Shown: positions 4,370-21,900 of the stretch, piece after piece
Position numbering within the stretch: position 1 is the stretch's first letter
Layout of the letters: every line of letters starts with the position of its first letter
NCBI GenBank assembly: GCA_965227295.1
Contig: OZ245742.1
Span: 4,544,001-4,608,000, forward strand
Reading direction: 5' to 3'
DNA: 64,000 nucleotides
From: Leptonemataceae bacterium
GTDB taxonomy: Bacteria > Spirochaetota > Leptospiria > Leptospirales > Leptonemataceae
Notes under the pieces: generated by a model
Seen by the model: the letters and a program-made list of their open reading frames with translations, nothing else
The model's database searches: none
What the model was told of the DNA's origin: nothing
Position numbers and translations under genes: made by a program

Positions 4370-4373
4370 GTAT

Positions 4374-4447: not shown

Positions 4448-4504
4448 TTCGTCTTGTTCTTCTTAAAGTCACTTTCGCTCATATTTACTCCTTAGTGCGA
4501 AATG

Positions 4505-4576
4505 TGGGTCCGGTGGGATTCGAACCCACGGCCATCCGATTAAAAGTCGGATGCTCTACCCCCGAGCTCCGGACCC
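4505..4576 (-). tRNA. tRNA-Lys(TTT)
   Basis: TCCGA-CTTTTAA-TCGGA arm. Confidence 0.9.
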
Positions 4577-4641
4577 GCTATTCTCTAAATGTCTTCTTGT
4601 CATCTTCGCTCTTCATGGCGTATCTCCTGTTGCTTATGATG

Positions 4642-4714
4642 TGCACCGCAAGAGACTCGAACTCTTCCCTGCTGCATGGCACACAGCTATGCTTGCCACT
4701 AACACCAGCGATGC
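4642..4714 (-). tRNA. tRNA-Gly(GCC)
   Basis: GCTGT-GTGCCAT-GCAGC arm. Confidence 0.8.
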
Positions 4715-4723
4715 GTTTAAACG

Positions 4724-4757
4724 AAAAAACCCTCCAGGGAGTCGGCCGGGGAGGGTT
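4724..4757 (-). terminator. Attenuator terminator of tRNA block 4
   Basis: AACCCTCC...GGAGGGTT followed by TTTT on the minus strand, directly before tRNA-Gly. Confidence 0.85.
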
Positions 4758-4784
4758 CTTCATGAATGCGTTTGCAGATTCTTC

Positions 4785-4901
4785 TCAGCAACGCATGCGC
4801 AGAACTCCTCCGGCGATCCGGCCGTCCTTATGGCCCGCATCGATCCGCATCCCGATAAATCGGGCGGTTCTCACAACCGTTGCTGTTACTGTTAAGCTCA
4901 T
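4785..4901 (-). CDS. Leader peptide of block 4, MSLTVTATVVRTARFIGMRIDAGHKDGRIAGGVLRMRC
   Basis: Codons 4-33 use only the 11 amino acids of the downstream tRNAs. Only synonymous changes in copy B (13977-14093). Confidence 0.85.
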   Translation of the reverse strand: MSLTVTATVVRTARFIGMRIDAGHKDGRIAGGVLRMRC

Positions 4902-4951
4902 GATAGAATACTCAGACGAATCCCTTGTTAAATTTCTTATAAAAATATCTT

Positions 4952-5023
4952 TGCCGACGCAGGGAATCGAAACCTGATTACCGCAGTGAAAGTGCGAGGT
5001 CCTTGCCTTTAGACGACGCCGGC
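4952..5023 (-). tRNA. tRNA-Glu(TTC)
   Basis: Loop CTTTCAC; T-stem imperfect in copy A and intact in copy B. Confidence 0.8.
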
Positions 5024-5119
5024 GATTTGAGTTGAAACGTAGTTAGGTCCACGTTCCCGTTCTCGCGGCATCGCTCCAGCTGACACGTATGTACGTCCTG
5101 CGCGGTTCATTATACTATG

Positions 5120-5190
5120 AGACATGGGTGGGATTCGAACCCACGTAAACGGCTTTGCAGACCGCCCGCTGGCCTCTCGCGCACCATGTC
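5120..5190 (-). tRNA. tRNA-Cys(GCA)
   Basis: GCGGT-CTGCAAA-GCCGT arm; U discriminator. Confidence 0.88.
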
Positions 5191-5285
5191 GGGTTTACTC
5201 TGGCTTGCGGCGGTCGGTAACATCGTTCTCTGTCTTCCATATCTCCCTCATAACACTTGAAAAATAAGCAAAATGCCCATAAACG

Positions 5286-5319
5286 AAAAAAGGCGAGCCG
5301 TTGATCCGGGCTCGCCTTT
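5286..5319 (-). terminator. Attenuator terminator of tRNA block 3
   Basis: AAAGGCGAGCC...GGCTCGCCTTTTTT. Confidence 0.88.
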
Positions 5320-5343
5320 CGCATCCAGCAGGTTACACTGAAT

Positions 5344-5451
5344 CTAAGACGAGCGCATGACTCCCTGAAACACATCACGCTCACAACCCGCATGAATCAT
5401 GCCGGCCTTCGCGAGGTCTCGTTCCGTTCTATGTTGGCGCTTCGGCGACAT
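5344..5451 (-). CDS. Leader peptide of block 3, MSPKRQHRTERDLAKAGMIHAGCERDVFQGVMRSS (alternative start 5400)
   Basis: Adjacent Cys-Glu codons; the stop overlaps GCTCGTCTT, which complements the terminator 5' arm; frame conserved in copy B (13375-13482). Confidence 0.65.
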   Translation of the reverse strand: MSPKRQHRTERDLAKAGMIHAGCERDVFQGVMRSS

Positions 5452-5531
5452 TCCGTTTCCTGAATACTTACTTGGTATTCGACGTCAACAACTTCATAAA
5501 GATTTAAATATTTTTTTCATGGAACTCAATG

Positions 5532-5604
5532 TTCCGGGAGATGGATTCGAACCATCAACCCCCGACTTCAAAGGCCGGTGTTCTACCCGTTGAACTACCC
5601 CGGA
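5532..5604 (-). tRNA. tRNA-Gln(TTG)
   Basis: CCGGC-CTTTGAA-GTCGG arm. Confidence 0.88.
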
Positions 5605-5612
5605 ATGAGTTG

Positions 5613-5684
5613 CACCGGAGGCAGGACTCGAACCTGCATAGAACGCATTAACATTGCGTCGCCTTACCATTAGGCTACTCCGGT
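5613..5684 (-). tRNA. tRNA-Asn(GTT)
   Basis: ACGCA-ATGTTAA-TGCGT arm. Confidence 0.88.
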
Positions 5685-5688
5685 ATTC

Positions 5689-5766
5689 TGGCAGAGGGAA
5701 CAGGATTCGAACCTGTGAACATCGGATTTGGAGTCCGACAGCTTGGACCGCTCGACTCATCCCTCT
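5689..5766 (-). tRNA. tRNA-Trp(CCA), with encoded 3' CCA
   Basis: TCGGA-CTCCAAA-TCCGA arm. Confidence 0.88.
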
Positions 5767-5769
5767 ATG

Positions 5770-5842
5770 TCGGCGTGGTGGGACTTGAACCCACGACCCC
5801 CGGTTCCCGAAACCGGTGCTCTACACCCTGAGCTATACGCCG
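5770..5842 (-). tRNA. tRNA-Pro(CGG)
   Basis: CCGGT-TTCGGGA-ACCGG arm; C1-G72, A73. Confidence 0.9.
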
Positions 5843-5845
5843 GAT

Positions 5846-5882
5846 AATAAAAAACCCCCTCAAGCTTCCGCCGGAGGGGGTT
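5846..5882 (-). terminator. Attenuator terminator of tRNA block 2
   Basis: AACCCCCTC...GAGGGGGTTTTTTATT. Confidence 0.88.
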
Positions 5883-5911
5883 CTCGCGCAAACGCGCTGT
5901 TGCTCAGAGCA

Positions 5912-5983
5912 CTACACGACCACCTCCAGGCAGATGCCGGGATTCTGTTGGGGCCAGTTGCTCTGTGGGAAAAACATGCTCAT
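5912..5983 (-). CDS. Leader peptide of block 2, MSMFFPQSNWPQQNPGICLEVVV
   Basis: PQSNWPQQNP control run matches the Pro/Trp/Asn/Gln tRNAs. Copy B (12689-12754) is 6 nt shorter at the 5' end with the frame preserved. Confidence 0.88.
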   Translation of the reverse strand: MSMFFPQSNWPQQNPGICLEVVV

Positions 5984-6087
5984 CACGTTTACCTGAAGTT
6001 AAGAGACGACGGTTTTCGAGAAATCCTTAACGAAAATATATTTTTTGGAACGAAAGCTTCGCTTTGCCTCGTCTCATCTACCGTATC

Positions 6088-6156
6088 ATGAACGGTATGT
6101 TACTATCATCGCTGTATCTTCTCAGCTCCGGCGGCATGCGGGAGGCGGCGATGTAG
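6088..6156 (+). CDS. Leader peptide of block 1, MNGMLLSSLYLLSSGGMREAAM (alternative start 6097)
   Basis: Ten consecutive Leu/Ser/Tyr codons, all different; identical in copy B (12516-12584, minus strand). Confidence 0.9.
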   Translation: MNGMLLSSLYLLSSGGMREAAM

Positions 6157-6184
6157 TACGCGCAGACAGTTTTCTGTCTTCGAG

Positions 6185-6224
6185 AAGCCCCTCCCGGTGA
6201 ACCCGCGAGGGGCTTTTTGTTTTT
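6185..6224 (+). terminator. Attenuator terminator of tRNA block 1
   Basis: AAGCCCCTC...GAGGGGCTT followed by TTTGTTTTT. Confidence 0.88.
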
Positions 6225-6228
6225 AAAC

Positions 6229-6315
6229 GCGCTGCTTTCCTCCTGCCGGTCTGTAAAGCCGGGGTCGTTAAACGAGGAGGTCGGGAGACGAGAGGTTCAA
6301 ATCCTCGGCAGCGCA
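6229..6315 (+). tRNA. tRNA-Tyr(GTA)-like RNA lacking a normal D-arm
   Basis: Acceptor GCGCTGCT/GGCAGCGC; arm CCGGT-CTGTAAA-GCCGG; T-arm GAGG-TTCAAAT-CCTC. Confidence 0.65.
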
Positions 6316-6319
6316 TACT

Positions 6320-6403
6320 GGATAGATGCCCGAGTGGTAAGGGACCCGTTTCGAAAACGGAGGTCGGCGGTTCGTCGCGTGGGTTCGATTCCTACTCTAT
6401 CCG
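6320..6403 (+). tRNA. tRNA-Ser(CGA)
   Basis: Loop TTCGAAA, long variable arm, G73. Confidence 0.88.
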
Positions 6404-6409
6404 CATTAC

Positions 6410-6493
6410 GGAGGGATGACCGAGTGGTAAGGTATCCGGTTGGAAGCCGGTGGTCATCGATGAGATGCGAAGGTTCGATTCCTTCTCCCTCCG
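6410..6493 (+). tRNA. tRNA-Ser(GGA)
   Basis: Loop TTGGAAG, long variable arm, G73. Confidence 0.88.
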
Positions 6494-6499
6494 AGAAAT

Positions 6500-6584
6500 G
6501 GAACAGTGGCCGAGAGGTAAGGCAGCGGTCCGCTAAACCGTGGTCGTCGTAACAGACGCGGAGGTTCGATTCCTCCCTGTTCCG
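6500..6584 (+). tRNA. tRNA-Ser(GCT)
   Basis: GCGGT-CCGCTAA-ACCGT arm (C33), long variable arm. Confidence 0.85.
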
Positions 6585-6587
6585 CAG

Positions 6588-6662
6588 CGAGCGATAGCCC
6601 AATCAGGCAGAGGCAGTCGACTTAAAATCGGCAGAGTGCGGGTTCGATTCCCGCTCGCTCAA
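6588..6662 (+). tRNA. tRNA-Leu(TAA), short variable loop
   Basis: GTCGA-CTTAAAA-TCGGC arm. Confidence 0.82.
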
Positions 6663-6665
6663 AAC

Positions 6666-6738
6666 GCATCCGTAGCCCAACGGTAGAGGCACCAGGTCGA
6701 GAGCCTGGTCAGTGCAGGTTCGAATCCGGCCGGATGCA
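6666..6738 (+). tRNA. tRNA-Leu(GAG), short variable loop
   Basis: CCAGG-TCGAGAG-CCTGG arm (C33). Confidence 0.75.
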
Positions 6739-6741
6739 CAC

Positions 6742-6814
6742 GGGGACGTAGCCCAACGGCAGAGGCAGCACGCTCAGAACGTGTCCAGTGTGAGTTCGAA
6801 TCTCGCCGCCCCCA
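6742..6814 (+). tRNA. tRNA-Leu(CAG), short variable loop
   Basis: GCACG-CTCAGAA-CGTGT arm. Confidence 0.82.
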
Positions 6815-6985
6815 TAGAGTCTCCACTGAAGAGATTTGCGACCTCGTGCATCGACATTTACTAGAGTAACATTTCGTGATGTTAGCATGTCTCCGGGCTT
6901 TTGTCAGCAAAAAATTAACTTTCCTTGAGTTTAAACTTGCAGTATGCCGCCGTGTGTTTAGCCTTCCCCCGGAGGAATCTATCAC

Positions 6986-7459
6986 ATGGAAACAATTCAG
7001 AAAATCATCGTCAGTCACGAAGGCATGGAAGCGCTCAAGCAGTGCGAGTCCATCCGCGTGGAGCACGAAGAATACCCGCTGCTCGTCATCGAGTTTCTGG
7101 GAGAGGGTCCAACCGCTCGCCCCGCCCTGGGCGTTTCGCAGTTCATCAAGCAAGCAAACGGCCGCTGGCTGTGCGCTCGCGAAATGCAGTTCGAAATCAC
7201 GGCGGACAATGAGTGGTTTCCGTTTCTGCTCGCCAGTGAAACTACCGGTGAATTCAAAGAGGTCTACACCCCGGTGAAGGTACCGCAGCCGTCCCGGCTG
7301 AATTCCCTCTTAAAAGTAAATCGAGAAGTGTTTCTCGAACTTCAACAGGTCGCTTGCGAGTGGGACCAGGAACTCCGCCGCGCGTGTTACCTGGGAGCGC
7401 CGAAAAGCACTCGTTTCTACCCGCTCTTCGACGACCTGGACCAGGAGGCCGAAGCATGA
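6986..7459 (+). CDS. Hypothetical protein (DUF6908-like), right-arm copy
   Basis: Identical to 2893-3366. Confidence 0.7.
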   Translation: METIQKIIVSHEGMEALKQCESIRVEHEEYPLLVIEFLGEGPTARPALGVSQFIKQANGRWLCAREMQFEITADNEWFPFLLASETTGEFKEVYTPVKVPQPSRLNSLLKVNREVFLELQQVACEWDQELRRACYLGAPKSTRFYPLFDDLDQEAEA

Positions 7460-7659
7460 AAGACCCGGGAAGAAAATCAGTTCAGTATCTGGTCGGCATC
7501 AGCGAAGACATGCGCTACGAATTGCGCACGCGCTTCGCGAACACGGCACAGCACATTCGCAATCTCATTGCGGCGGACCTGCGTAAGCGTCCGCCGCTCC
7601 GGGAATTGATCGGCAAAGAGCCGGAGAAGGTCCTCTGCGATGACGGCTGGAAGGAGTAA
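7456..7659 (+). CDS. Small putative RHH DNA-binding protein, right-arm copy
   Basis: ATGA coupling to the upstream gene; AGGAGG SD. Confidence 0.55.
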   Translation: MKDPGRKSVQYLVGISEDMRYELRTRFANTAQHIRNLIAADLRKRPPLRELIGKEPEKVLCDDGWKE

Positions 7660-7972
7660 CGAATACTATTGCGGTTGGGGCAACTACGAAACGTGGTGTG
7701 TGTCTGAGCGCATGTACAAAGACACGGCGACCAACGATTTGTTTATGGGCATTGCCTGCGATTGTGTTCGTGACGGCGAGGAAGAACAACTCGCCACGCA
7801 CTTGAGAGATCGTCACCGGGAGTATCTGCACAGGCTCGAACTTCCCGAACTGTTGCGCGAGTTACTCCAGGGGGCCATCGAAAAAGTGGACTGGCAACGG
7901 ATCGCCGACCACCTGTTAGAAGACGTAGCCGAAGAAAAGGAGCAGTTAAAGGAAATCGGCTGGAGCTGGTGA
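7640..7972 (+). CDS. Phage/plasmid-type hypothetical protein, right-arm copy
   Basis: Identical to 2380-2712. Confidence 0.65.
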   Translation: MTAGRSNEYYCGWGNYETWCVSERMYKDTATNDLFMGIACDCVRDGEEEQLATHLRDRHREYLHRLELPELLRELLQGAIEKVDWQRIADHLLEDVAEEKEQLKEIGWSW

Positions 7973-8316
7973 CGTTCGCGCGCGTGCAGGCGAAGACCCG
8001 GTGGGTTTTCGCCTGCACGCGCTATTTATGTACGGCGGTTTCGTGACGTCGCACACAAAATACACAGATGCATTACCGACGATGTGCGCGGCGGGATCTC
8101 GGCGCTGGCCGTGAAATTCGAACTCCCTTGATTGTCCAGAAAAACGACACGACCTGGGCGGCGGGGGTTAGAGTTCGGCCGAGATATGTTAGCGTGGACG
8201 TCTTTGGTCGCCGCGATTGACGTATATATAATCCAGTTGGGTTCTTGCCAGGTGGACTCGATTTCAGCGGCACCTGGTGCTTTAATCTCTAACAATATCT
8301 CATGTGATGTTTGCCC

Positions 8317-9328
8317 TCTTTCCGTGAGTTCTTTCCGTGAGTTCTTTCCGTGAGTTCTTTCCGTGAGTTCTTTCCGTGAGTTCTTTCCGTGAGTTCTTTC
8401 CGTGAGTTCTTTCCGTGAGTTCTTTCCGTGAGTTCTTTCCGTGAGTTCTTTCCGTGAGTTCTTTCCGTGAGTTCTTTCCGTGAGTTCTTTCCGTGAGTTC
8501 TTTCCGTGAGTTCTTTCCGTGAGTTCTTTCCGTGAGTTCTTTCCGTGAGTTCTTTCCGTGAGTTCTTTCCGTGAGTTCTTTCCGTGAGTTCTTTCCGTGA
8601 GTTCTTTCCGTGAGTTCTTTCCGTGAGTTCTTTCCGTGAGTTCTTTCCGTGAGTTCTTTCCGTGAGTTCTTTCCGTGAGTTCTTTCCGTGAGTTCTTTCC
8701 GTGAGTTCTTTCCGTGAGTTCTTTCCGTGAGTTCTTTCCGTGAGTTCTTTCCGTGAGTTCTTTCCGTGAGTTCTTTCCGTGAGTTCTTTCCGTGAGTTCT
8801 TTCCGTGAGTTCTTTCCGTGAGTTCTTTCCGTGAGTTCTTTCCGTGAGTTCTTTCCGTGAGTTCTTTCCGTGAGTTCTTTCCGTGAGTTCTTTCCGTGAG
8901 TTCTTTCCGTGAGTTCTTTCCGTGAGTTCTTTCCGTGAGTTCTTTCCGTGAGTTCTTTCCGTGAGTTCTTTCCGTGAGTTCTTTCCGTGAGTTCTTTCCG
9001 TGAGTTCTTTCCGTGAGTTCTTTCCGTGAGTTCTTTCCGTGAGTTCTTTCCGTGAGTTCTTTCCGTGAGTTCTTTCCGTGAGTTCTTTCCGTGAGTTCTT
9101 TCCGTGAGTTCTTTCCGTGAGTTCTTTCCGTGAGTTCTTTCCGTGAGTTCTTTCCGTGAGTTCTTTCCGTGAGTTCTTTCCGTGAGTTCTTTCCGTGAGT
9201 TCTTTCCGTGAGTTCTTTCCGTGAGTTCTTTCCGTGAGTTCTTTCCGTGAGTTCTTTCCGTGAGTTCTTTCCGTGAGTTCTTTCCGTGAGTTCTTTCCGT
9301 GAGTTCTTTCCGTGAGTTCTTTCCGTGA
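8317..9328. repeat. Perfect 13-bp tandem repeat (TCTTTCCGTGAGT), ~78 copies
   Basis: 1012 bp of invariant units; the mirror site 1999-2035 has ~2.8 units. Confidence 0.97.
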
Positions 9329-9356
9329 TCGCTCCGCTGATCGCGTCCGTTCTCTG

Positions 9357-11340
9357 GTCGCGGTAGAACGGCCGGTTGCCCGGCCGCCCCCGCACAGATC
9401 CCGGCGTGCGGTATTCTCGCACCGGGCTCTTCGAAAGCACTCGCTTCCACATAAAGTCAATTCAGAGTAAGTCGCAACTGAGATACTGGTCGTTCCATGA
9501 TGCGCGGTTTTTCGATCCGGTAGTGCGCCATCAGATCCCTCAGCCCCTGCCAGTCCAGACTCCGGCGCTGACTGCGCCGATTGAGCCACTTGTACAGATT
9601 CATTTCCACCTGATAGTAGAAGCTTCGTATACTCTTGTAGTTGCATTGGACGCCATAATAGTTATAGTATCCACGCAGCCGGGAGTTCAGAAGATTGAAG
9701 AACCTGCGCATGGGTAGATGCCGATTCGCTTTAATCCACTGCTTCACATTCTGGATCGACGCATGCAATCGCTTTGGAGCGGTGCGACGCGGAACCCACC
9801 AGAACCCCTTTCGAGAACGAGCCCAGCGGTATTCAAAGCCTAGAAATACGAACGCCTCACGCCCGGTATTGAACTTCGCGCGGAAGCCCGGGCGCTCGAA
9901 ACTTTTCACTCCTGACTTTTCCGGCGCCAGTTCCAGACCAAACTTTCGCAAACGTTTTCCAAGCGTCGCATAGAATTTCAGCGCATCGTCTTTGGATTCA
10001 AAGGCGCAAACAAAATCGTCCGCGTATCGACACATATAGGCCGGTCTCTTGCAGTGCTTCTTCACCACTTTCTCGAACCAGAGGTCCAGTACGTAATGAA
10101 GATAGACGTTCGCCAGAACCGGACTGATCACGCCGCCTTGAGGAGTCCCAGCGGTCGGGCGCGAGACCTGACCGTTTACCTCCAGCACGCCTGCTTTCAG
10201 CCACTTGCGAATCAGACCGAGAAAGGCCCGATCATCGATTCGTTGCTCCAGCATTCGCATCAACCAATCATGGTCAATGTTGTCGAAGAAACCCTTGATG
10301 TCGGCTTCCACAATCCAGCCGAGCTTCCCCGGACTCAAAGTTGAACTCAGAGTCTTCGAAGCCTCACGCGGACCGGTGTTCGGCCGATAACCATACGAAC
10401 ACGACAGGAAGTCTTGCTCATAGATCGCTTCAAGGATACGCGTCGCGCATGTTTGTACCAGTTTGTCTTCGAGGGCCGGCAATCCAAGCGGACGTTGTTT
10501 TCCGTCCGCTTTCGGGATAAAGACCCTGCGAATCAGTTTTGTTCGGTATCGTTTCTGTTTTAAGCGTTCCACCAGATCCCCGACATTTTCCGTAAGGTTC
10601 GCTTCGTAGTCGCGAAACGTTTCACGGTCCACGCCCGGAGCCGCCCGGCGATTCATTCCTGCGAACGAATCTTCGAGATTCATCTGGTTGAGCATCCCAT
10701 ACAGATTACGAAACAGATGTTTCTTACTCCTCCTCGCTTTATTTGCTATTGCCCGTAGTGAGGTTTGCATCAGTTGTTCCGATCCTGCCGTCCGGCTGAT
10801 GTTGACTCTGCGAGCTGCGTACTTTCGTCAGCCCCTTCCCCGATCATCGCGCATCGCACGCGAAGACCGAACCCGTCGAAACTCCATTCGAGTTTCATTC
10901 GATTCTGTGGACGGCTCTCCCGCCCTCTGAGTACTATGGGCTGATCCGACTCCCCGTTGATCATCATTCTTCCTTGTTCATTCGGTCAGAATTACCTTCG
11001 CTATCGTCGAAGGAACCAACGGGGTCTCCCGGGTTCCACGATGTTTCTCTGCATACATGCCGCGCTCAAGCGACCCCGACAGACCTCCAGAATCTCGCTA
11101 AAACGATTCCTTTGTGCTGGTTTCCATCTGACCAATGATGTCACCGTCTGCATCTATGGCATTTTACGAGGCTCAACAGCTTCCGGGAGTGTGGACTCCC
11201 CTACGGCCTGCATGCTTCCCTGTGTACGCTTCGTGTGGCGGTTACCCGCTTCCACGCAACACTCGGTAGAAGTTGTTCGCTAAACTTTACTTCATATGGA
11301 CTTTCACCTTATCAGAAACATCGGGCTTTGCCCGGCGCAC
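9357..11340 (-). mobile_element. Group II intron (~1984 nt), probably bacterial class E
   Basis: 5' GTGCG at 11340; domain V/VI GAGCCCGGTGCGAGAATACCGCACGCCGGGATCTGTGCGGGGGCGG...CTACCGCGAC; the exons rejoin to the intact left-arm site at 1970/1971. Confidence 0.93.
9457..10770 (-). CDS. ltrA: Group II intron reverse transcriptase/maturase without endonuclease domain
   Basis: RPLGLP, SYGYRP, DIKGFFD, GTPQGG and YADD motifs, followed by maturase domain X. Confidence 0.95.
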   Translation of the reverse strand: MQTSLRAIANKARRSKKHLFRNLYGMLNQMNLEDSFAGMNRRAAPGVDRETFRDYEANLTENVGDLVERLKQKRYRTKLIRRVFIPKADGKQRPLGLPALEDKLVQTCATRILEAIYEQDFLSCSYGYRPNTGPREASKTLSSTLSPGKLGWIVEADIKGFFDNIDHDWLMRMLEQRIDDRAFLGLIRKWLKAGVLEVNGQVSRPTAGTPQGGVISPVLANVYLHYVLDLWFEKVVKKHCKRPAYMCRYADDFVCAFESKDDALKFYATLGKRLRKFGLELAPEKSGVKSFERPGFRAKFNTGREAFVFLGFEYRWARSRKGFWWVPRRTAPKRLHASIQNVKQWIKANRHLPMRRFFNLLNSRLRGYYNYYGVQCNYKSIRSFYYQVEMNLYKWLNRRSQRRSLDWQGLRDLMAHYRIEKPRIMERPVSQLRLTLN

Positions 11341-11499
11341 TGGCCACACGCCCCACGCATTTGTGGCCACAAATTCAGCCGTGGGCAGCAAGTTTCTTGC
11401 CGGCCATCCAGAACCGAAACATCAGCCGGATATGCGCGGCGATCTCCGCTTCCACGGACAGCTTTTTCGATCTGCGTTTCGCTGGCTCCGCAGAAAAAT

Positions 11500-11680
11500 T
11501 GATCCATGACCTACTTCGACCACTGCATAACCAACGCCGGCTCGGAAGGGATGAATTCACGAATCCAGGCGATCAAAACTCGCGCCCGGGGCTTCCGAAA
11601 CTTCGCCCATTACCGGGCCTCGATCCTCTCTCATTGCGGGGATTTAGAGCTTTATCCGTGAAAATTCCTGAAGATGGACG
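11500..11680 (+). pseudogene. ISL3-family transposase C-terminal remnant
   Basis: Reads YFDHCITNAGSEGMNSRIQAIKTRARGFRNF...CG, then LELYP* after a frameshift, followed by an IR-like AAATTCCTGAAGA. Confidence 0.75.
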
Positions 11681-11799
11681 CACATGGCGGCATATTACAA
11701 GTTTAAACTCAAGGAAAGTTAATTTTTTGCTGACAAAATCCTGGAGACATGCTAACATCACGCAATGTTACTCTAGTAAATGTCGATGCACGAGATCGC
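11681..11799. repeat. Truncated left arm of tRNA array B
   Basis: Diverged copy of ~3396-3514. Confidence 0.9.
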
Positions 11800-11822
11800 A
11801 AATCTCTTCAATGGAGACTATA

Positions 11823-12443
11823 TGGGGACGGTGAGACTCGAACTCACACTAGACACGTTCTGAGCGTGCTGCCTCTACCGCGAATGTAAGCAGTTGCTCC
11901 CGGGTGGTCGCAACTGCGGCGGTTCAGACTGCTTCGCAGTCTGGGCTACGGATGCGTTTCGAGCGAGCGGGAATCGAACCCGCACTCTGCCGATTTTAAG
12001 TCGACTGCCTCTGCCTGATTGGGCTATCGCTCGCTGCGGAACAGGGAGGAATCGAACCTCCGCGTCTGTTACGACGACCACGGTTTAGCGGACCGCTGCC
12101 TTACCTCTCGGCCACTGTTCCAATTTCCGGAGGGAGAAGGAATCGAACCTTCGCGCCTGTTAAGACGACCGCCGGCTTCCAACCGGATACCTTACCACTC
12201 GGTCATCCCTCCACGCTGCGGATAGAGTAGGAATCGAACCCACGCGACGAACCGCCGACCTCCGTTTTCGAAACGGGTCCCTTACCACTCGGGCATCTAT
12301 CCAGTATGCGCTGCCGAGGATTTGAACCTCTCGTCACCCGACCTCCTCGTTTAACGAGTAAACTGTACCTTGCTGCGCAAGCCTTGACTTACTACCGCCT
12401 TTCAGTTGCTGGCGTTTACAGACCGGCAGGAGGAAAGCAGCGC
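11823..12443 (-). tRNA. Array B block 1: Tyr-like (insertion), Ser CGA, Ser GGA, Ser GCT, Leu TAA, chimeric Leu GAG/CAG (insertion)
   Basis: Homologous to 6229-6814 in inverted orientation; leader at 12516-12584 and terminator retained. Confidence 0.88.
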
Positions 12444-12823
12444 GTTTAAAAAGAAAAAGCCCCTCGCGGGTTTACCGGGAGGGGCTTCTCGAAGACAGAG
12501 AACTGTCCGCGCGTACTACATCGCCGCCTCCCGCATGCCGCCGGAGCTGAGAAGATACAGCGATGATAGTAACATACCGTTCATGATACGGTACATGAGA
12601 CGAGGCAAAGCGAAGCTTTCGTTCCAAAAAATATATTTTCGTTAAGAATTTCTCGAAAACCGTCGTCTCTTAACTTCAGGTAAACGTGATGCACTTCCCA
12701 CAGAGCAACTGGCCCCAACAGAATCCCGGCATCTGCCTGGAGGTGGTCGTGTAGTGCTCTGAGCAACAGCGCGTTTGCGCGAGAACCCCCTCCGGCGGAA
12801 GCTTGAGGGGGTTTTTTATTATC

Positions 12824-13294
12824 CGGCGTGTAGCTCAGGGTGTAGAGCACCGGTATCGGGAACCGGGGGTCGTGGGTTCAAGTCCCACCACGCCGACATA
12901 GAGGGATGAGTCGAGCGGTCCAGGCTGTCGGACTCCAAATCCGATGTTCACAGGTTTTTGTGCATGGATGCACTTATGCCGCGGAGGACAGGAAGTCCGG
13001 GAGCGGCCGAATCCTGAAAGAGGAAGATGCTACGCATCTTTCATCTTACTGACGCGCTGCGCTTGTCCCTCTGCCAGAATACCGGAGTAGCCTAATGGTA
13101 AGGCGACGCACTGTTAATGCGTTCTATGCAGGTTCGAGTCCTGCCTCCGGTGCAACTCATTCCGGGGTAGTTCAACGGGTAGAACACCGGCCTTTGAAGT
13201 CGGGGGCGCAAATAGACTTTTGCCTTATGGCAAAAGTCGGCGGTTCGGAGTTGTGCGGCAACGCACAACTCCGGGTCCTCACCATCTCCCGGAG
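12824..13294 (+). tRNA. Array B block 2: Pro CGG, Trp CCA (two insertions), Asn GTT, Gln TTG (T-arm replaced by an insertion)
   Basis: Homologous to 5532-5842; leader at 12689-12754 and terminator retained. Confidence 0.88.
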
Positions 13295-13635
13295 CATTGA
13301 GTTCTATGAAAAAAATATTTAAATCTTTATGAAGTTGTTGACGTCGAATACCGAGTAAGTAATCAGGAAACGGAATGTCGCAGAAGCGCCTACAGACAAC
13401 GGAACGAGACCTCGCGAAGGCCGGCATGATTCATGCGGGTTGTGAGCGTGATGTGTTTCAGGGAGTCATGCGCTCGTCTTAGATTCAGTGTAACCTGCTG
13501 GATGCGAAAGGCGAGCCCGGATCAACGGCTCGCCTTTTTTCGTTTATGGGCATTTTGCTTATTTTTCAAGTGTTATGAGGGAGATATGGAAGACAGAGAA
13601 CGATGTTACCGACCGCCGCAAGCCAGAGTAAACCC

Positions 13636-13926
13636 GACATGGTGCGCGAGAGGCCAGCGGGCGGTCTGCAAAGCCGTTTAACGTGGGTTTGTGTGCAGGG
13701 ATGCACTTATGCCGCGAAGGACAGGATGTCCGGGAGCGGCCGAATCCCACCCATGTCTCATAGTACAATGAACCGCGCAGGACGTACATATGTATCAGCC
13801 GGAGCGATGCCGCGAGAGCGGGAACGTGGATCAAGCTACGTTTCAACTCAAATCGCCGGCGTCGTCTAACGGCAAGGACGCTGCACTTTCACTGCGGTAA
13901 TCGGGGTTCGATTCCCCGCGTCGGCA
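13636..13926 (+). tRNA. Array B block 3: Cys GCA (51-nt insertion), Glu TTC
   Basis: Homologous to 4952-5190; leader at 13375-13482 and terminator retained. Confidence 0.88.
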
Positions 13927-14163
13927 AAGGTATTTTCATAAGAAATTTAACAATGGATTCGTCTGAGTATTCTATCATGAGCTTAACAGTAACAGCAACG
14001 GTTGTAAGGACCGCCCGATTTATCGGGATGCGGATCGATGCGGGCCATAAGGACGGCCGGATCGCCGGAGGAGTTCTGCGCATGCGTTGCTGAGAAGAAT
14101 CTACAGACGCATTCATGAAGAACCCTCCCCGGCCGACGCCCTGGAGGGTTTTTTCGTTTATAC

Positions 14164-15529
14164 GCATCGCTGGTGTCAGTGGCAAGCATAGCTGTGTGCC
14201 ATGCAGCAGGGAAGAGTTCGAGTCTCTTGCGGTGCACATTACAGAAAACAGGAGGTACGCCATGAAGAGCGAAGATGACAAGAAGACGTTTAGAGAATAG
14301 CGGGTCCGGAGCTCGGGGGTAGAGCATCCGACTTTTAATCGGATGGCGATCGGTTGAGTGCTTCGCACTCTCATCTTACTCCCGCCTTTCAGTTGGGGGT
14401 TCGAATCCCACCGGACCCACATTTCAAGTAGCGAGGTTAATATGAACGAAAGTGACTTTAAGAATAATAAGACGGAACGTCGGGGAGCAGGTGTGGTCAT
14501 TGCATCCGGTTGAAGCCCGGAGGAATTCGGTTCGATCCCGAGCCCGACGAATACGCATCAGTGATGTAACGGTCAACATGTCTGTCTTCCAAACAGATCA
14601 TCAGGGTTTTTGGCCATGGATGGCCTTATGCCGCGGAGGACAGGAGGTCCGAGAGCGGCCGATTCCCTGCTGATGCACACGCCCGGTTAGCTCCAATGGT
14701 TAGAGCGGCGGTTTTGTGAACCGCTGGTTGCAGGTTCGAATCCGTGCACCGGGCAAAACATTGCGGTGTAGCATAGTGGCGATGCAGCGGGCTCATAACC
14801 CGTCCTACGGAGGTTCAATTCCTTCCGCCGCAACATACGGGCTTAGGACGCAATATAAACGCCTGTCTTACAAACAGGAGATCGCTGGTTTTTGTGCATG
14901 GATGCACTTATGCCGCGGAGGCCAGGAGGGCCGAGAGCGGCCGAATCCGGCAGCCCGTACATGGGGCCGTAGTTTAACGGGAGAATCTTTGTTTTGCAAA
15001 CAAGGGACGTCGGTTCGATTCCGACCGGTTCCACAAATTGGACTTTAGCTCAGAGGGACAGAGCGCCCGTTTCCGAAGCGGTAGGCCGCAGGTTTTTGGC
15101 CACGGATGGCCTTATGCCGCGAAGGACAGGAGGTCCGAGAGCGGCCGAGTCCTGCAAGTCCAACACAGGGCCCTGGCCAAATGGATCAAGGCATCAGATT
15201 ACGAATCTGAAGATTGCGGGTTCGAGTCCCGCGGGCTCTACATGCCGCGTTAGTTTAATGGTAGAACTCCTGATTGTCTCTCAGGGGGCGAGGGTTCGAT
15301 TCCCTCACGTGGTGCATACGAAGCGTAGTTTAACGGTTGAGAACGACGGTCTGATATGCCGTTGGTTAAAGACGAAGATTCAGCGTTATGCGTGAACGCA
15401 TAACGCTGGGTTCGATTCCAGCCGCTTCGAAGCATCCCGGTAATCGGGATTTTCATAAGGGGTTGGTGTATGTGGCTAACATCCGGGATTGTGTCTCCCG
15501 GGCAGTGGGTTCGAATCCCGCACCCCTGA
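14164..15529 (+). tRNA. Array B block 4: Gly GCC, Lys*, Phe, Gly TCC*, Thr, Met, Val*, Ala, Arg CCG*, Arg ACG, Asp, Ile*, (Arg TCT internally deleted), His; * = insertion
   Basis: Homologous to 3528-4714; leader at 13977-14093 and terminator retained. Confidence 0.88.
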
Positions 15530-15542
15530 AAGAGAGAAGCGG

Positions 15543-15943
15543 GCGATCTCATGCATCGATATTTACTAGAGTAACATTGCATGATGTTAGCATGTCGCCA
15601 GGTTTTTGTCAGCAAAAAATTAACTTTCCTTGAGTTTAAACTTGTAATATGCCGCCATGTATTTAGCCTTCCCCCGGAGGAAACTATCACATGGAAACAA
15701 TTCAGAAAATCATCGTCAGTCACGAAGGCATGGAAGCGCTCAAACTGTGCGAGTCCATCCGCGTGGAACACGAAGAATACCCTCTGCTCGTCATAGAGTT
15801 TCTGGGACAGGGGCCCACCGCTCGCCCCGCCGTGGGCGTTTCGCAGTTCATCAAGCAAGCGGGTAAACATCAGCCGGATATGCGCGGCAATCTCCCCTTC
15901 CACAGACAACTTTTTCGATCTACGTTTCGCTGGCTCCGCAGAA
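15543..15943. repeat. Internally deleted right arm of array B
   Basis: 15543-15860 matches 6838-~7155; 15865-15943 matches 11417-11495. Confidence 0.9.
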
Positions 15944-16542
15944 ATAAATGCGAGAAACCGGCGGACGTCCGCGAGGCCTGCGTCCGCGAGGCGCTGAAGA
16001 TCATTGAAAAACACGGCGTGGAAAATCTGAGCCTGCGCCAGGTCGCCCGGCGCCTGAAGCTTTCTCATCAGGCCCCGTACAAACACTTCGCGAGCAAAGA
16101 TCATCTGCTCGCGGAAATCATTGAGCGCGGTTTTGTCACGTTCGCGGAGTATCTCGAACGCGACGCAAAATCGAAGCAGGCCAATCGCAACCTGCGCAGC
16201 CTCGGCAAGGCTTACATCCGCTTCGCCCTGGACTATCCGCTCTACTACCGGCTCATGTTCTCGTCGCCGCATCCGCCGGCGAAAGAACATCCCGGCATGG
16301 CAGCCCGCAGCAAGGCCACCTTCGAGATCTTACGCGATCGCGTCCGCGACATGCAGTCCATGACCGGAGCGCGGCGCGACGTGGACGCGGAGGCCCTGTT
16401 CATCTGGTCGACCATGCACGGCCTTGCTTCGATTCTTTCCTGGGAACACGTAAACGGACTGCCGATCGGCGGCCGGGACCGCCGACGGTACATTACGCAC
16501 GTATTGAATCGCATCGGGGATGCGTTGCGATTCAATGATTGA
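15691..16542 (+). CDS. Chimeric ORF: arm-protein N-terminus plus arm terminus, in frame with a TetR/AcrR regulator (TetR part ~15950-16542)
   Basis: TetR HTH LSLRQVARRLKLSHQAPYKHFASKDHLL and WSTMHG motif; native TetR start not visible. Confidence 0.75.
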   Translation: METIQKIIVSHEGMEALKLCESIRVEHEEYPLLVIEFLGQGPTARPAVGVSQFIKQAGKHQPDMRGNLPFHRQLFRSTFRWLRRNKCEKPADVREACVREALKIIEKHGVENLSLRQVARRLKLSHQAPYKHFASKDHLLAEIIERGFVTFAEYLERDAKSKQANRNLRSLGKAYIRFALDYPLYYRLMFSSPHPPAKEHPGMAARSKATFEILRDRVRDMQSMTGARRDVDAEALFIWSTMHGLASILSWEHVNGLPIGGRDRRRYITHVLNRIGDALRFND

Positions 16543-16549
16543 GCTCTAT

Positions 16550-17803
16550 CAGGCTGCTGAAAAAGTCATTCGAAAGCGGAATCTGTGAAATTCATTTGGG
16601 CGTTGCGCCCGGCCGGGCCGCACACAAGTCGCGGTCGTAGCGACTTGTGAACCCGACGAGGCGCAAGGCGCGTCGCTCCATTCCGCCGACCGGGCGCCGG
16701 GCTGCTCCGGGCTCCGCGTTCGCTTCGGTCCTCCGTGCTTCGCACTCCGGACTGCCGCTGCGCGGCACCCTGCACATCCCTAACGCTTGTATTTCGCAAG
16801 TTAGCATTCGCGATCATGCTGCTGCCTCCTGTAGGTTTCTGATTCGCAGCAAGTTGTAGACGGCAACAGCGAAACGGAAAATCCATTGAGCGGTGCGGTG
16901 ATCGACGGCACTGGAGCGGCTCTTCTGTGCGATGTGCGGCACAATCCGGTTCGCTTTAAGTTCTTCTACGAAAGCTTTAGTATCGTAGCCTTTGTCGGCG
17001 CCCGGAGTGATGCGGCGGCGATCTTTGCTTCGGCGTAGTTCCTTCATGAAGATGGCTGCCGCATCGCGTTCCGCCGTTCCGGTCGCGTGTGTCACGCCGG
17101 CCATCACGGCGAGGCCGTGACGATTTTCCATAAGGACATGCCCCATATACACCAGCCGGGCCTCTTTGCCGTTGCCTTTGCGAAACAGCTTCGCATCCGG
17201 ATCGGTAGTGGATTCGTGCGTATCGTTGCGGCGTTTTTCACCGTGAAAACTTACGGACGGATTGCCCGGGTCACAGGCTCGCTGCGGCTTCCAGCAACGT
17301 GGCATCCACGGTGAAATGTTCGTCGCTGATCAGCCCGCGATCATCCGCCACTTCCAGAACGCCGCGAAAGAATTCGTCGGCGATGCCGCCTTCCATCAGA
17401 CGGTCGCGATTCTTTGAAGAGACGCTCGCATCCCAGACGGGATCGTCGGCGCTCAACCCGATGAACCAACGATACAGCAGATTGTAGTTCGTTTGCTCCA
17501 TCAACTGACGTTCGCTGCGGACGCTGAACAACACTTGCAGCAACAGAGCGCGCAACAGGTACTCCGGCGGAATCGAGGGCCACCCGAAAGCCGGATACAT
17601 TTCATCAAATCGATCGCTAAGATTCGCGAGGACCGCATCCGTCAACTTGCGAATGTCACGCAACGGATGGTTGGCCGGAATCCGGTCCTCCATCGAAACG
17701 TGACTCCAGATACTCGGTTGCTTTTCTTCTTCGCCGCGCATGCGACGAAATCTGAACAAGCACCGCTAAATCGCCAGGAGATTTCGACTTTTTCAGCAGC
17801 CTG
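16550..17803 (-). mobile_element. IS5-family insertion sequence with a disrupted transposase
   Basis: 18-bp terminal IR CAGGCTGCTGAAAAAGTC / GACTTTTTCAGCAGCCTG; CTAT direct repeat on both flanks. Confidence 0.9.
16814..17741 (-). pseudogene. IS5-family transposase, frameshifted and C-terminally deleted
   Basis: Two frames: IPANHPLR...SVRSERQL...HFTVDAT and HESTTDPDA...ADKGYD. Confidence 0.85.
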
Positions 17804-17822
17804 CTATTCGATTCTCCCGAAC

Positions 17823-18767
17823 TCAGGCCGCGGGAATTTGCCGCGAGGTCTGCATGATCCAGGACGTGTAGAAGATTCCCAGGCTTCTTAACAGAAACAA
17901 ATCTGAATCTAAGGGTTCGCCGCTGTCCGGGGTGTAGTCCCGCAGCGAACGAACCGCGTCCCGATAGCTGGCGCGGAACTTCCAGAAACCCGTCTCGAAC
18001 GGAATGTACTGGGCCACGCGCATCATGTGTTCCGGGCCGAGGCCGTATTCCTTCAGCCACTCCACGAGCAGAGTATCGCACTTGAACTTCTTCGAAAGAA
18101 TGACCTGGGCCACCAGGGAACGATAGGCGCGGTCGAGAAAGATGAGCGAAACCTCGGGATGGTCGCGGTAGGCGTTCACGATGATCTCGTCCTGGCTCTC
18201 CAGTGCGGCCCGCATGTTGCGCATGCGAGCCAGGCGGCGCGCAAGATAGATGTAGGCCCGGAACGAACGCATGAGCCGACCGCGGTCCTGCTCCGAAAGA
18301 GCCGTGTGATGGGCCCGCCGGCCCATCTGCATAATGGTCTGCTCCGCGCTTTCCCGCGTGGGGTTGAGCGCCAGGATCTGGATGGTTTGAAATAGAATGT
18401 CGAAGGAGATTTGCCCGGCGGTGTCACCCACCGACATAATTTCTTTGCGATAGGCCGAGGCCACTTCCAGGGCCACCCGCGCAAGTTGGTCGACACGCGT
18501 CCGCCCGGCGGATTCGAGGAGCTTCTTGATGTTGCCGACCAGGGACGGATTGTACTCGGTGAAGTCGTCCTCCGAATCGCGAATGTGAGCGAGGAAGGTC
18601 TTTTTCAGGACCTGGAGACGCCCGTCCTGTACTTCCTGCCGCGCCTGCACGATGCGCCAGAGCAGCAAAGGCCGGGATGAACCTTTCGGCAGGCGTACCG
18701 AGCCAGTATAATAGAAGGAATCGCGATTTGCAGCCTTTTCGGGGGGCGCGGTTTCGGGGGAGGTCAT
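17823..18767 (-). CDS. Hypothetical protein
   Basis: 314-aa ORF with host-like codon usage. Confidence 0.75.
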   Translation of the reverse strand: MTSPETAPPEKAANRDSFYYTGSVRLPKGSSRPLLLWRIVQARQEVQDGRLQVLKKTFLAHIRDSEDDFTEYNPSLVGNIKKLLESAGRTRVDQLARVALEVASAYRKEIMSVGDTAGQISFDILFQTIQILALNPTRESAEQTIMQMGRRAHHTALSEQDRGRLMRSFRAYIYLARRLARMRNMRAALESQDEIIVNAYRDHPEVSLIFLDRAYRSLVAQVILSKKFKCDTLLVEWLKEYGLGPEHMMRVAQYIPFETGFWKFRASYRDAVRSLRDYTPDSGEPLDSDLFLLRSLGIFYTSWIMQTSRQIPAA

Positions 18768-18924
18768 GGGATCACCATTTTCGCATGAAATGTTAGTTTT
18801 ATGTTAGCCGGATTGTACACATAAATGAAACAATGTCTACTACTTTTAGCTCGCCCGGTAAAATGCGCGGCGAGCTCCCCCGGTTCATCGTTGATTCCGT
18901 TCCGGGAATCATTCTCCATGGCCC

Positions 18925-21900
18925 ATGCCCGTCACGAAACTGCTCATCGCCAACCGCGGGGAAATTGCCGTACGCATCGCCCGGGCCGCCGCTGATCTCG
19001 AGCTGCCCTGCGTGGCCGTATTTTCGGAGGACGATGCCGGCGCCGGTCACCTGCGCCACGCGGATGCATCCCGGCCCCTGCCCGGCACCGGTCCCGCCGC
19101 CTACCTCAATCCCGCCGCGCTGATGGAAGCCGCGCGATCCGCCGGCTGCGATGCAGTCCACCCCGGCTACGGTTTCCTCAGTGAAAACGCCGGCTTCGCC
19201 CGGGCCTGCCGGGAAGCCGGCCTCGTCTTCGTGGGGCCGGAGCCCGAACACCTGGAACTCTTCGGCGACAAGATGCGAGCCCGCGCCCTCGCTCTCGAAC
19301 ACGGCGTGCCCGTACTCACCGGGAGTTCCGGTCCGGCCTCATTAACAGACGCTCGGCAATTGTTAATGGACGGCCCGATCATCCTAAAGGCCGTGGCCGG
19401 AGGCGGCGGACGCGGCACCCGCATCGTGCGCCGGCCCGAAGAACTGGAGCCGGCCTTCGAACGCTGCTCTTCCGAGGCCCGCCTGGCCTTCGGCAACGGC
19501 GCTCTCTACGCCGAACGTTTGCTGGAACGGGCGCGCCACGTCGAGGTGCAAATCGTCGGCGACGGGGAACGAATCACGCACTTCCACGAACGCGAATGCA
19601 GCGTGCAACGCCGGCGGCAGAAGCTCATCGAAATCGCCCCGGCCCCGGAATTGAGCCCGGCCCTGCGCGAACCATTGATCGAGGCCGCCGTAAAACTGGC
19701 CCGGGCCGTGCGCTACCGCAGCCTGGGTACGTTTGAGTTTCTCGTGGATACGCGAGCCGGTGCGTTTTATTTCCTGGAAACGAATCCGCGGGTTCAGGTG
19801 GAGCATACCGTCACCGAGGCGGCGTGCGGCGTAGATCTCGTTCAGTTACAGTTAAGGCTTGCCGGGGGTGAAAGCCTGAACGCGGCCGGCTTCGAAGATG
19901 CCGGGCCGAAGCCTTCGGGATACGCCGTGCAACTCCGCATCAACACCGAGACCATGGACGTGAGCGGCGAGGCCCGGCCCGCCGGAGACGTTACACTGGC
20001 TCGCTTCGATCTACCCGGCGGGCCCGGCGTGCGCGTGGATACCGCCGCGCGCCAGGGCGACAGCACCAACGGCAACTTCGATTCCCTGCTCGCCAAACTC
20101 ATCGTCCATCACCGCGGAACGTTTGCGCGGACTGTCGATCGTTTGCGTCGCTCCCTGGCGGAGCTCCAGGTCTCCGCGACGGACGGGCGGCCCTGTAGCA
20201 ACGCAAACTTCCTCGCCGCGATTCTTGCGCGCCCGGAGTTTGTTCAGTACGATCTCGATACCGGCTTCGTCGATGATCACGTCGAGGAACTCGTGGCCGC
20301 GACGCCAGGCGCTACTCCGGAGGGGGGCACCGCAACCGCCGCCTCGCCGACGAACTCACTCGCAGCCCCGCCGGGAACGGAGGCGATCGCATCTCCCATG
20401 CGCGGTCGGTTGATCGAAGTCAGCGTGAGTCCGGGGGAAAACGTGAGTCGCGGCGCGCAGCTTGCCGTACTCGAAGCCATGAAGATGGAACACGTCATCC
20501 AGGCGCCGTGCGCCGGCTTCGTAGAACGGCTGTTCGCATCGGCCGGAGACGCCGTGAGCGACGGACAACCGTTGCTGTTTCTGCGTCCGGGCGCGGACGA
20601 CGGGCCCGAGGCCGGCGACGAAAACGAAGCCGCGGATTTGAATGCGATTAGACCGGACTTGCAAGAAGTTATCGATCGACACTTTGCAATTTCCGACGAG
20701 GGGCGACCCCGGGCCGCGGCAAAGCGTCACAAGCGCGGCCAGCGCACGGCCCGGGAAAACCTGGCCGATCTCTGCGATCCCGGCACGTTCAAAGAGTACG
20801 GGGCCATGGCCCTGGCGGCCCAACGCTCCCGGCGTTCGTTGGATGATCTCATTCGCCTGAGTCCCGCGGATGGACTGGTGGCCGGCCTGGCCGCGGTCAA
20901 CGGTGATCGCTTTCAAGAAGAACGCTCACGCTGCGCCGTGATGTCCTACGATTATACCGTCTTCGCCGGTACCCAGGGCATGATGAATCACAAAAAGACC
21001 GATCGCCTGCTGCAAGTCGTCGAAGAGTTGCAGTTACCGATGGTCGTCTTTACCGAGGGCGGCGGCGGCCGTCCCGGTGACGTGGACGCGGTGGCCGTGG
21101 GCGCTCTCGACCTGCATACGTTTACAGCCTACGCGAAATTGAGCGGCCTCGTCCCGCGCATCGCCGTGGCCTCGGGACGTTGTTTCGCGGGCAACGCCGC
21201 GTTCTTCGGTGCCAGCGACATTACCATCGCGACGCAGGACGCGACGATCGGTATGGGCGGGCCGGTAATGATCCAGGGCGCGGGCCTGGGCCGTATCGAC
21301 GCCGAAGACGTCGGCCCGGCCGCCATGCACGCGCGGAGCGGCGTGGTGGATGTCCTGGTCCGGGACGAGGTCGAAGCCGTGCGCGCCGCAAAGCACGCCC
21401 TGTCGTTTTTCCAGGGCCCGCTACAGAACTACGAGCACGCCGATCAACGCCTCCTGCGTACCGCGGTACCGGACAATCGCCTGCGGGCCTACGACGTGCG
21501 TCGCATCATTCGACTCTTAGCTGACACTGATTCAATGTTAGAGCTGCGGCCGCTTTTCGCCCCCGGCATGATCACGGCCCTGATTCGCATCGGTGGCCGA
21601 CCGCTCGGTTTGATCGCCAACCATCCCGGCTACCTGGCCGGGGCCATCGACGCCGACGGCGCCGACAAGGCCGCGCGTTTTTTACAGCTTTGCGACGCCT
21701 TTGCTCTGCCCGTCCTCAGCCTGGTGGACACGCCGGGCATCATGGTCGGCGCGGATGCGGAACGCACCGCCCTGGTCCGTCACGCGGCCAGGCTCTTTCT
21801 CACCGGCGCGTCCGTCAACATACCGATCTTCGCCATCGTCCTGCGCAAGGGCTACGGACTGGGCGCCATGGCCATGACGGGCGGCAGCTTTCATCGATCT

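Follow-up and report, generated by a model that had tools for sequence, protein, structure and literature searches.

REP/BIME elements, or repetitive extragenic palindromes, owe their mobility to RAYT tyrosine transposases; bacterial group II introns of class C are inserted immediately behind intrinsic terminators; and intron transposition is known from the tRNA genes of Thermoproteales. To our knowledge, and from limited literature searches, insertion into the T-loops of tRNA genes has not been described for REPs. Non-canonical tRNA introns occur in archaea and red algae at various positions that include the T-arm, as recorded in PMC9602550. Here we describe a 51-nt structured element that interrupts five tRNA genes at the same T-loop bond in a 64,000-nt stretch of DNA from a Leptonemataceae bacterium (contig OZ245742.1); this whole stretch is referred to as the window. 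We propose with moderate confidence that a short dispersed repeat, related to REPs and non-autonomous, invaded a redundant tRNA array and gave rise to the five inserts.

Two tRNA arrays lie in the window (Table 1), and array B duplicates, in redundant and diverged form, an array that looks mobile; its blockwise identity to array A is 88-99%. Each of the five interrupted genes of array B, when aligned with its array A counterpart, shows one clean 51-nt gap at GGTT^CGA, which corresponds to T55^C56. A sequence-only reading of the window had placed five 51-nt inserts in T-loops, with copy A providing the empty sites and without target duplication, and the alignment confirms all of this, with the coordinates exact on the plus strand. 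Each insert starts with T and ends in C, and its neighbours are a T upstream and an exon C downstream; since such a junction cannot be slid, there is no target duplication at the five sites. Base 57 is gene-specific and the same as in copy A (CGAATCC, CGATTCC, CGAGTCC), and the inserted block therefore ends exactly at the element boundary. All five inserts are sense to the tRNAs, in one orientation and within 2.2 kb. The genes for Trp, Cys, Gly(TCC), Val and Arg(CCG) were called intact by ARAGORN in copy A, while none of the five (0/5) was called in copy B. A 34-nt degenerate pattern gave five window matches against 0.00 expected (100 shuffles), and a covariance model run with filters off over the 64 kb scored the five inserts at 69.7-71.6 bits, the next best match reaching 9.6 bits.

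The unit consists, in this order, of TTT, hairpin 1, TTAT and an outer stem GCCGC/GCGGC, inside which lie hairpin 2 and a purine-rich 3x4 internal loop. The five inserts align gap-free, all fit the layout T(T/G)T-hairpin1-TTAT-GCCGC-G(G/A)A-hairpin2-G(G/A)GA-GCGGC that had been read from the sequence, and in all five this layout is also the minimum-energy fold (z -2.7 to -3.6). Their mutual differences amount to 2-9 of 52 columns and define two groups, the Gly and Arg copies differing in just 2/52. The two groups are distinguished by double compensatory stem changes, GTGCA/TGCAC versus GGCCA/TGGCC, and both variants also occur in gammaproteobacterial copies of the element.

These further copies were obtained by a pattern scan of 185,579 species' genomes, in which the inner hairpin was left free and which gave at least 146 matches in at least 116 loci outside the window. 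Among the matches listed, all taxa are Gammaproteobacteria/Pseudomonadota or unclassified, the carriers include Sedimenticola, Woeseiaceae, Chromatiales, Oceanospirillaceae and Cellvibrionales, and at least 17 loci come from one Sedimenticola hydrogenitrophicus strain. The matches represent the same two-hairpin unit, since the 17 nt upstream, which lie outside the pattern, again form hairpin 1. Flanks were examined for 80 of the loci (1.28 Mb), and in these the covariance model gave 129 hits. Compensatory changes seen among the window copies are real and are borne out across 118 distinct family members, where 90.8% of cells are paired and 217 cells are changed on both sides. None of 500 shuffles reached the observed covariation values and slid registers were likewise far off; the outer stem is fixed by the search pattern and is thus uninformative for covariation.

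Units often occur in head-to-tail tandem arrays of 2-4 units with a 50-54-nt period. Among the 146 matches listed, 24 are preceded by another unit, 15 are duplicate contexts and 4 are unusable, which leaves 103 unique non-tandem contexts. A terminator-like hairpin with a T-run lies directly upstream in 66 of these 103, with the unit in one fixed orientation, and a few further terminator cases were misclassified by the rule used. In an independent second classification, 45/103 contexts lie within 9 nt 3' of a hairpin, compared with 124/1000 random positions. In being placed in one orientation just 3' of a terminator hairpin with its T-run (66/103 members), the family resembles class C group II introns; unlike these, the 51-nt unit has no ribozyme or open reading frame (ORF), and the group II intron of the window is separate from it. 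Insertion at hairpin apices was considered as a general rule and rejected, with 19/103 contexts in a predicted loop versus 235/1000 random positions. The 5' flank is T-rich without a fixed word, being GGTT in the window, T-runs elsewhere and other bases in 37/103 contexts. Flanks of the type GGTT...CGA were found in none of the 146 matches listed outside the window, and the 13 tRNA genes in the sampled gammaproteobacterial loci are all uninterrupted; T-loop insertion is therefore peculiar to the window and not a habit of the family. Thus the earlier suggestion that the element targets tRNA genes fails as a family trait by the refuting condition that was named with it, the usual site being post-terminator, while five precise hits at T55^C56, each with its own flanking bases kept, call for a local site-specific cause.

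In eight loci the unit or an array of units stands in sense orientation behind the terminator of the trp attenuator and 12-258 nt ahead of the trpE ATG, and given this placement the unit lies inside the transcribed leader. A leader peptide MNAQIANNWWWLPA... or a close variant, with three Trp codons (WWW), is present in 5/8 of these trpE loci. No recurrent upstream gene such as csrA was found, the trp leader being the sole conserved locus; a co-oriented upstream ORF was counted in 44/65 contexts, a census that is noisy and not relied on. Sedimenticola carries two families of 220-260-nt palindromic, long-hairpin composite repeats with the unit at the apex, by which copy number there is inflated. 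The 51-nt unit has no match in the plasmid collection, and the unit alone was not searched against phages.

A relationship to REPs is indicated by the outer arms of the unit, GCCGCGA and GAGCGGC, which are the arm words of GTAG-headed REPs GTAGGAGCGGCC...GGCCGCGA present in the same loci (33 matches in 14 loci). The element arms stand in swapped order compared with the REP arms, with the loop at the opposite end of the same duplex, and where REPs have their GT(A/G)G head, all 118 aligned copies have CG(A/G)G. A hybrid element/REP junction was found at L057:10174, and two element copies are located inside REP loops (L038, L081). From these arrangements we infer that the unit may represent one period of a REP-like mosaic. 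The proposal of a REP-like non-autonomous element made from the window alone holds up in that the unit belongs to a dispersed, often tandem family with GTAG-type REP arms. As expected of REP/BIME elements, it is a short imperfect palindrome, extragenic and dispersed in many copies; both are GC-rich, hairpin-forming and multicopy, lie near gene 3' ends in tandem or mosaic arrangement and lack a target duplication. It differs from them by its swapped arms, its CG(A/G)G head and two extra hairpins with conserved A-N-GGA-U loops. A miniature inverted-repeat transposable element does not fit, as the two ends (TTTG... and ...GCGGC) do not form inverted repeats and the five filled sites show no duplication. 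Palindrome-associated transposable elements of the IS200/IS605 type have subterminal hairpins, lack a duplication, keep a fixed orientation and insert 3' of one specific tetra- or pentanucleotide; the unit shows hairpins, no duplication and a fixed orientation, its 5' flank is T-rich and not one fixed word, and no TnpA was identified. An integron attC or tyrosine-integrase att site was also considered and rejected, since neither a core-site pair nor a duplicated 3' part of a tRNA is present.

We favor insertion at the DNA level of a REP-related repeat into five T-loops of array B, which would have been precise, in one orientation and without target duplication. It could have been carried out in trans by a RAYT/HUH-like enzyme acting on single-stranded hairpin DNA, and two or more independent insertions, drawn from a varied pool of source copies, would be involved. 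An alternative that needs no T-loop-specific enzyme is local copying, in which one or two founding T-loop insertions were spread by gene conversion or template switching between T-arms. Five copies in one array, in one orientation and within 2.2 kb would be expected from such copying, as would the close similarity of the Gly and Arg copies, and the 99%-identity blocks shared by arrays A and B show that conversion occurs here. However, the flanks shared by the five genes are just GGTT and CGA, so that conversion would have had to stop exactly at the element boundary in all five. Precise insertion is favored over gene conversion because base 57 and the T-stems are gene-specific and equal to copy A, and because the two groups with double compensatory stem changes both have counterparts in the gammaproteobacterial pool. 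Copy A, moreover, received no insert despite having the same T-arms. Spread by local copying thus appears distinctly doubtful.

The loop of each hairpin in the unit is conserved as C-A-N-GGA-U-G, with six bases and a closing C-G pair, while stem sequences are free to change and covary. The motif CA(N)GGANG is present in hairpin 1 of 92 and hairpin 2 of 110 of the 113 distinct copies compared, and in both hairpins of 91. According to PMC7652899, the CsrA site consensus obtained by SELEX is RUACARGGAUGU with GGA in a six-base loop, the CsrB repeat is CAGGA(U/A/C)G, and GGA motifs 10-63 nt apart can be bridged by one CsrA dimer; the GGA-to-GGA spacing of the unit, 26 nt, falls inside this range. 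As a sequence fact, the match of the loops to the published CsrA/Rsm binding consensus is strong. At true stem pairs of the sense strand, G:U pairs exceed A:C pairs by 26 to 12, which lends weak support to selection on the sense strand.

One possibility suggested by these loops is that the unit acts at the RNA level as a portable pair of CsrA/Rsm sites, and that the five array B genes could serve as CsrA decoys or regulators and not as tRNAs. Besides the loop consensus, the spacing and the covarying stems, this is consistent with the sense orientation of the copies both in the tRNA genes and in the eight trpE 5' leaders, with predicted precursor folds for Gly and Cys in which acceptor and T stems are kept and the element forms a separate domain, and with the presence of CsrA in Leptospira (PMC8668096). 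CsrB, CsrC, RsmY and RsmZ likewise show repeated GGA-loop hairpins flanked by CA/UG and tandem multiplication. In contrast to these small RNAs, the units are scattered, most family members lie behind terminators and are expected to be little transcribed, and their arrays start at the upstream terminator with no room for a promoter of their own. The 51-nt unit also has an extra invariant frame, TTAT-GCCGC-GRA...GRGA-GCGGC, of which the TTAT and the internal loop are unaccounted for by CsrA. Ten GGA sites across 2.2 kb are sparse compared with CsrB, and some array units (L057) have lost the GGA of hairpin 1 with hairpin 2 kept. Searches with Rfam returned no family on the inserts and no CsrB/Rsm or intron match in window positions 1-20000 at E up to 1, and, at gathering threshold, neither a family for the unit nor a Csr/Rsm family in seven loci with arrays. 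Hairpin 2 was also inspected as a possible K-turn, sarcin-ricin motif or group II domain V, and none of these fits. On balance, we regard an RNA-level CsrA module as the principal alternative, and as unlikely. Less likely still, in our judgment, are tRNA-scaffolded decoys, in which the unit as a mobile CsrA/Rsm hairpin pair would have converted five tRNA genes of a spare array. A bolder variant is that an unrecognised bacterial pathway may recognise the unit and excise it from the T-loops.

Excision is also the essence of the removable intron that had been raised as an alternative for these inserts: the 51-nt element would be cut out and the T-loop religated, leaving five functional genes. The same position in five genes, gene remainders nearly identical to copy A and the self-contained fold of the element would agree with this. 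Short structured inserts at non-anticodon positions, in several genes and with related insert sequences, are also a feature of archaeal and red-algal tRNA introns. However, those introns form a bulge-helix-bulge with their exons that is cut by a splicing endonuclease, and no such motif is present in the five inserts; inspection and predicted folds show no 4-bp central helix from the insert ends. The initial remarks that a group I or II intron would need more length and that a clear bulge-helix-bulge is lacking are upheld by Rfam, inspection and folding; either ribozyme takes 200 nt or more, against the 51 nt here. The host here is bacterial, a Leptospirales member in which the splicing endonuclease gene was not searched for, and the unit resides mostly outside tRNA genes, with at least 146 such occurrences in post-terminator and tandem positions. 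In addition, the Val gene is disrupted in its D-arm region and the Trp gene has a second, unrelated insert, and copy B includes other tRNA genes that are clearly dead. The intron alternative thus finds no support and we consider it very improbable.

Array B has suffered other changes in addition to the five inserts, since its genes beyond the 15 intact ones are interrupted, deleted or chimeric. A second type of insert, family 2, comprises inserts of about 48-53 nt, each made up of a hairpin and, behind it, ...CTTACT-NCCGCCTTTCAGTTG or a variant, in three array B tRNA genes and at differing tRNA positions. All three share the plus DNA orientation although one host gene is on the minus strand, and this constancy fits a DNA-level and not an RNA-level process. 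The family 2 motif was not found in any of the 116 listed loci carrying the 51-nt unit. All B-specific inserts of at least 40 nt are within tRNA genes and none is in the approximately 1.2 kb of spacers, for which the chance is about 0.006 by rough estimate. The Leu(GAG)/Leu(CAG) chimera is dead because its acceptor halves mismatch. Exon parts of the five interrupted genes show 0-5 mismatches to copy A, with five in Arg(CCG), two in Gly(TCC), one in Trp and a 1-nt indel in Cys, and Arg(CCG) in copy B has a compensatory C-G to U-A change. Judged from sequence, the five interrupted genes are most likely inactive, with copy A supplying intact versions.

Several observations weigh against invasion of array B by a REP-related repeat. 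Linkage to a transposase was not found: a crude motif screen of about 2900 ORFs in 80 loci gave one RAYT-like ORF (L039:11596-12354), which scored 76.8 bits against an 80-bit cut-off; the nearby copy is 1.5 kb away, and the element does not flank this ORF in the way that REPs often flank their RAYT gene. By covariance model, the remaining 60 kb of the window contain no further copy, and three plus-strand hairpin/T-run sites in array B, the kind of target that the family usually occupies, are empty while five T-loops are filled. A pattern of conserved hairpin loops and internal loop with freely varying stems would be more usual for an RNA-protein site than for a transposase end; G:U pairs also exceed A:C pairs on the sense strand. 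Because of the few exon mismatches and the compensatory change in Arg(CCG), long-term decay of the five genes is not shown. Finally, the 15 intact array B genes evolved under tRNA constraint, as seen from compensatory changes in Asp, Phe and Ala.

Table 1. Features of the two tRNA arrays (positions in the window) and loci outside the window (L numbers) that carry the unit in two recurrent settings.
Feature	Position or loci	Strand or array	Remarks
tRNA array copy A	3515-6837	.	26 genes intact by ARAGORN; empty T-loop sites
tRNA array copy B	11800-15542	.	inverted vs A; 15 genes intact by ARAGORN
Element copy, tRNA-Trp(CCA) T-loop, array B	12957-13007	+	gene ~12900-13076; second unrelated insert too
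Element copy, tRNA-Cys(GCA) T-loop, array B	13690-13740	+	gene ~13636-13759
Element copy, tRNA-Gly(TCC) T-loop, array B	14609-14659	+	gene ~14555-14678
Element copy, tRNA-Val(TAC) T-loop, array B	14891-14941	+	gene ~14837-14960; D-arm region rearranged vs A
Element copy, tRNA-Arg(CCG) T-loop, array B	15095-15145	+	gene ~15039-15164
Family 2 insert, tRNA-Trp, after T-stem	13017-13064	+	B-specific; hairpin then TCATCTTACT...
Family 2 hairpin insert, tRNA-Lys, variable loop/T-stem border	14348-14396	+	B-specific
Family 2 insert, minus-strand tRNA-like (possibly Tyr) gene	12358-12410	+	B-specific
Two hairpin inserts, tRNA-Gln, replacing or splitting T-arm	13207-13281	+	B-specific
42-nt hairpin insert, tRNA-Ile, variable-loop region	15367-15408	+	B-specific
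Chimera of Leu(GAG) 5' end and Leu(CAG) 3' part	11823-11956	-	hairpin inserts in D-loop region
Arg(TCT), 58-nt core deletion	15443-15444	array B	just acceptor ends left
Val D-arm region, rearranged vs copy A	14846-14862	array B	
Asp pair	3759-3830 vs 15244-15315	A vs B	compensatory changes; neighbouring blocks 99% identical
Phe pair	4374-4447 vs 14478-14550	A vs B	compensatory changes; neighbouring blocks 99% identical
Ala pair	3990-4061 vs 14963-15034	A vs B	compensatory changes; neighbouring blocks 99% identical
Empty hairpin-plus-T-run sites, array B	~12786-12817, 13510-13540, 14123-14154	+	read by eye
trpE-leader loci	L015, L020, L042, L043, L057, L059, L096, L115		gammaproteobacterial metagenome-assembled genomes
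Composite-repeat loci, Sedimenticola	L001, L003, L004, L009, L010, L017, L022, L028, L032, L039, L053, L058, L079		

In the intact A/B pairs for Asp, Phe and Ala, compensatory changes occur in blocks in the anticodon and T stems. Since these blocks sit among 99%-identical blocks, the two arrays have a mosaic history, and the compensatory nature of the changes indicates that array B as a whole evolved under tRNA constraint. Array A is bracketed by a perfect 1516-bp inverted repeat (1999-3514 / 6838-8353, 100% identical) and array B by shorter versions of it that are 93-96% identical. A DUF6908 protein is encoded in each arm (2893-3366 on the minus and 6986-7459 on the plus strand), and with these brackets and one such gene per arm the array looks like an invertible or mobile unit. 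In plasmid and phage collections, the arrays match just scattered single tRNA genes at 72-89% identity. An assembly chimera was ruled out, array B being 88-99% identical to A and followed by a Leptospira-type gene.

Further features were noted around the arrays. In the right arm of the inverted repeat, positions 8317-9328 hold 77.8 perfect copies of a 13-nt unit, TCTTTCCGTGAGT, against just 2.8 copies of its complement in the left arm (1999-2035), which reflects either a large recent expansion or an assembly artefact. The group II intron between the arrays (9357-11304, minus strand; Rfam D1-D4 130.7 bits, domain V-VI 33.9 bits) has a reverse transcriptase/maturase ORF at 9457-10770; it splits the right arm of the inverted repeat in its extended form and is not preceded by a terminator at its 5' end. 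An IS5/IS1182-family transposase (16814-17759, minus strand) that is split in two overlapping ORFs lies just downstream of array B and adjoins a TetR-family gene, the N-terminal extension of which is a fragment of the DUF6908 repeat arm. Both arrays contain a tRNA-like gene (about 6200-6320 on the plus and 12303-12430 on the minus strand) that adjoins Ser genes and is uncalled by ARAGORN; a reading by eye shows GTA in the anticodon loop, an odd D region and a variable arm that is long.

The closest named relatives of the ArgH protein encoded in the window are annotated as 'Leptospirales bacterium' (72-73% identity), and the window also has a LIC_13029-family protein and DUF1554. The five window copies differ from gammaproteobacterial copies by 3-4 positions (92-94% identity), and are thus as close to them as to each other. 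In a BLAST comparison of the arrays with the gammaproteobacterial loci, all 409 of 409 hits fall on the five elements and nothing else is shared. High identity of the copies, while nothing else in the arrays matches these loci, suggests that a crossing between phyla may have taken place, either by the element or by array B with the element in it. Within the favored explanation of DNA-level insertion, the element or array B would have entered from a gammaproteobacterial background.

The repeat family is apparently undescribed, as there is no Rfam 15 model for it and no paper was found in limited literature searches. It is a widespread, strongly structured repeat family of environmental (marine, sediment) Gammaproteobacteria, and its Leptospirales copies, so close to the gammaproteobacterial ones, point to horizontal transfer, either of tRNA arrays or of the parasites in them. 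Genes with such T-loop inserts are silently missed by tRNA finders. Five clean insertions at one T-loop bond beside an intact paralogous array constitute a natural experiment from which target rules can be deduced. REP-type arms fused to two consensus CsrA sites make the selfish spread of regulatory binding sites testable. If the unit is indeed a mobile CsrA/Rsm hairpin pair, the repeat family would rewire post-transcriptional control in any transcribed leader that it enters, such as that of trpE in Woeseiaceae-like genomes.

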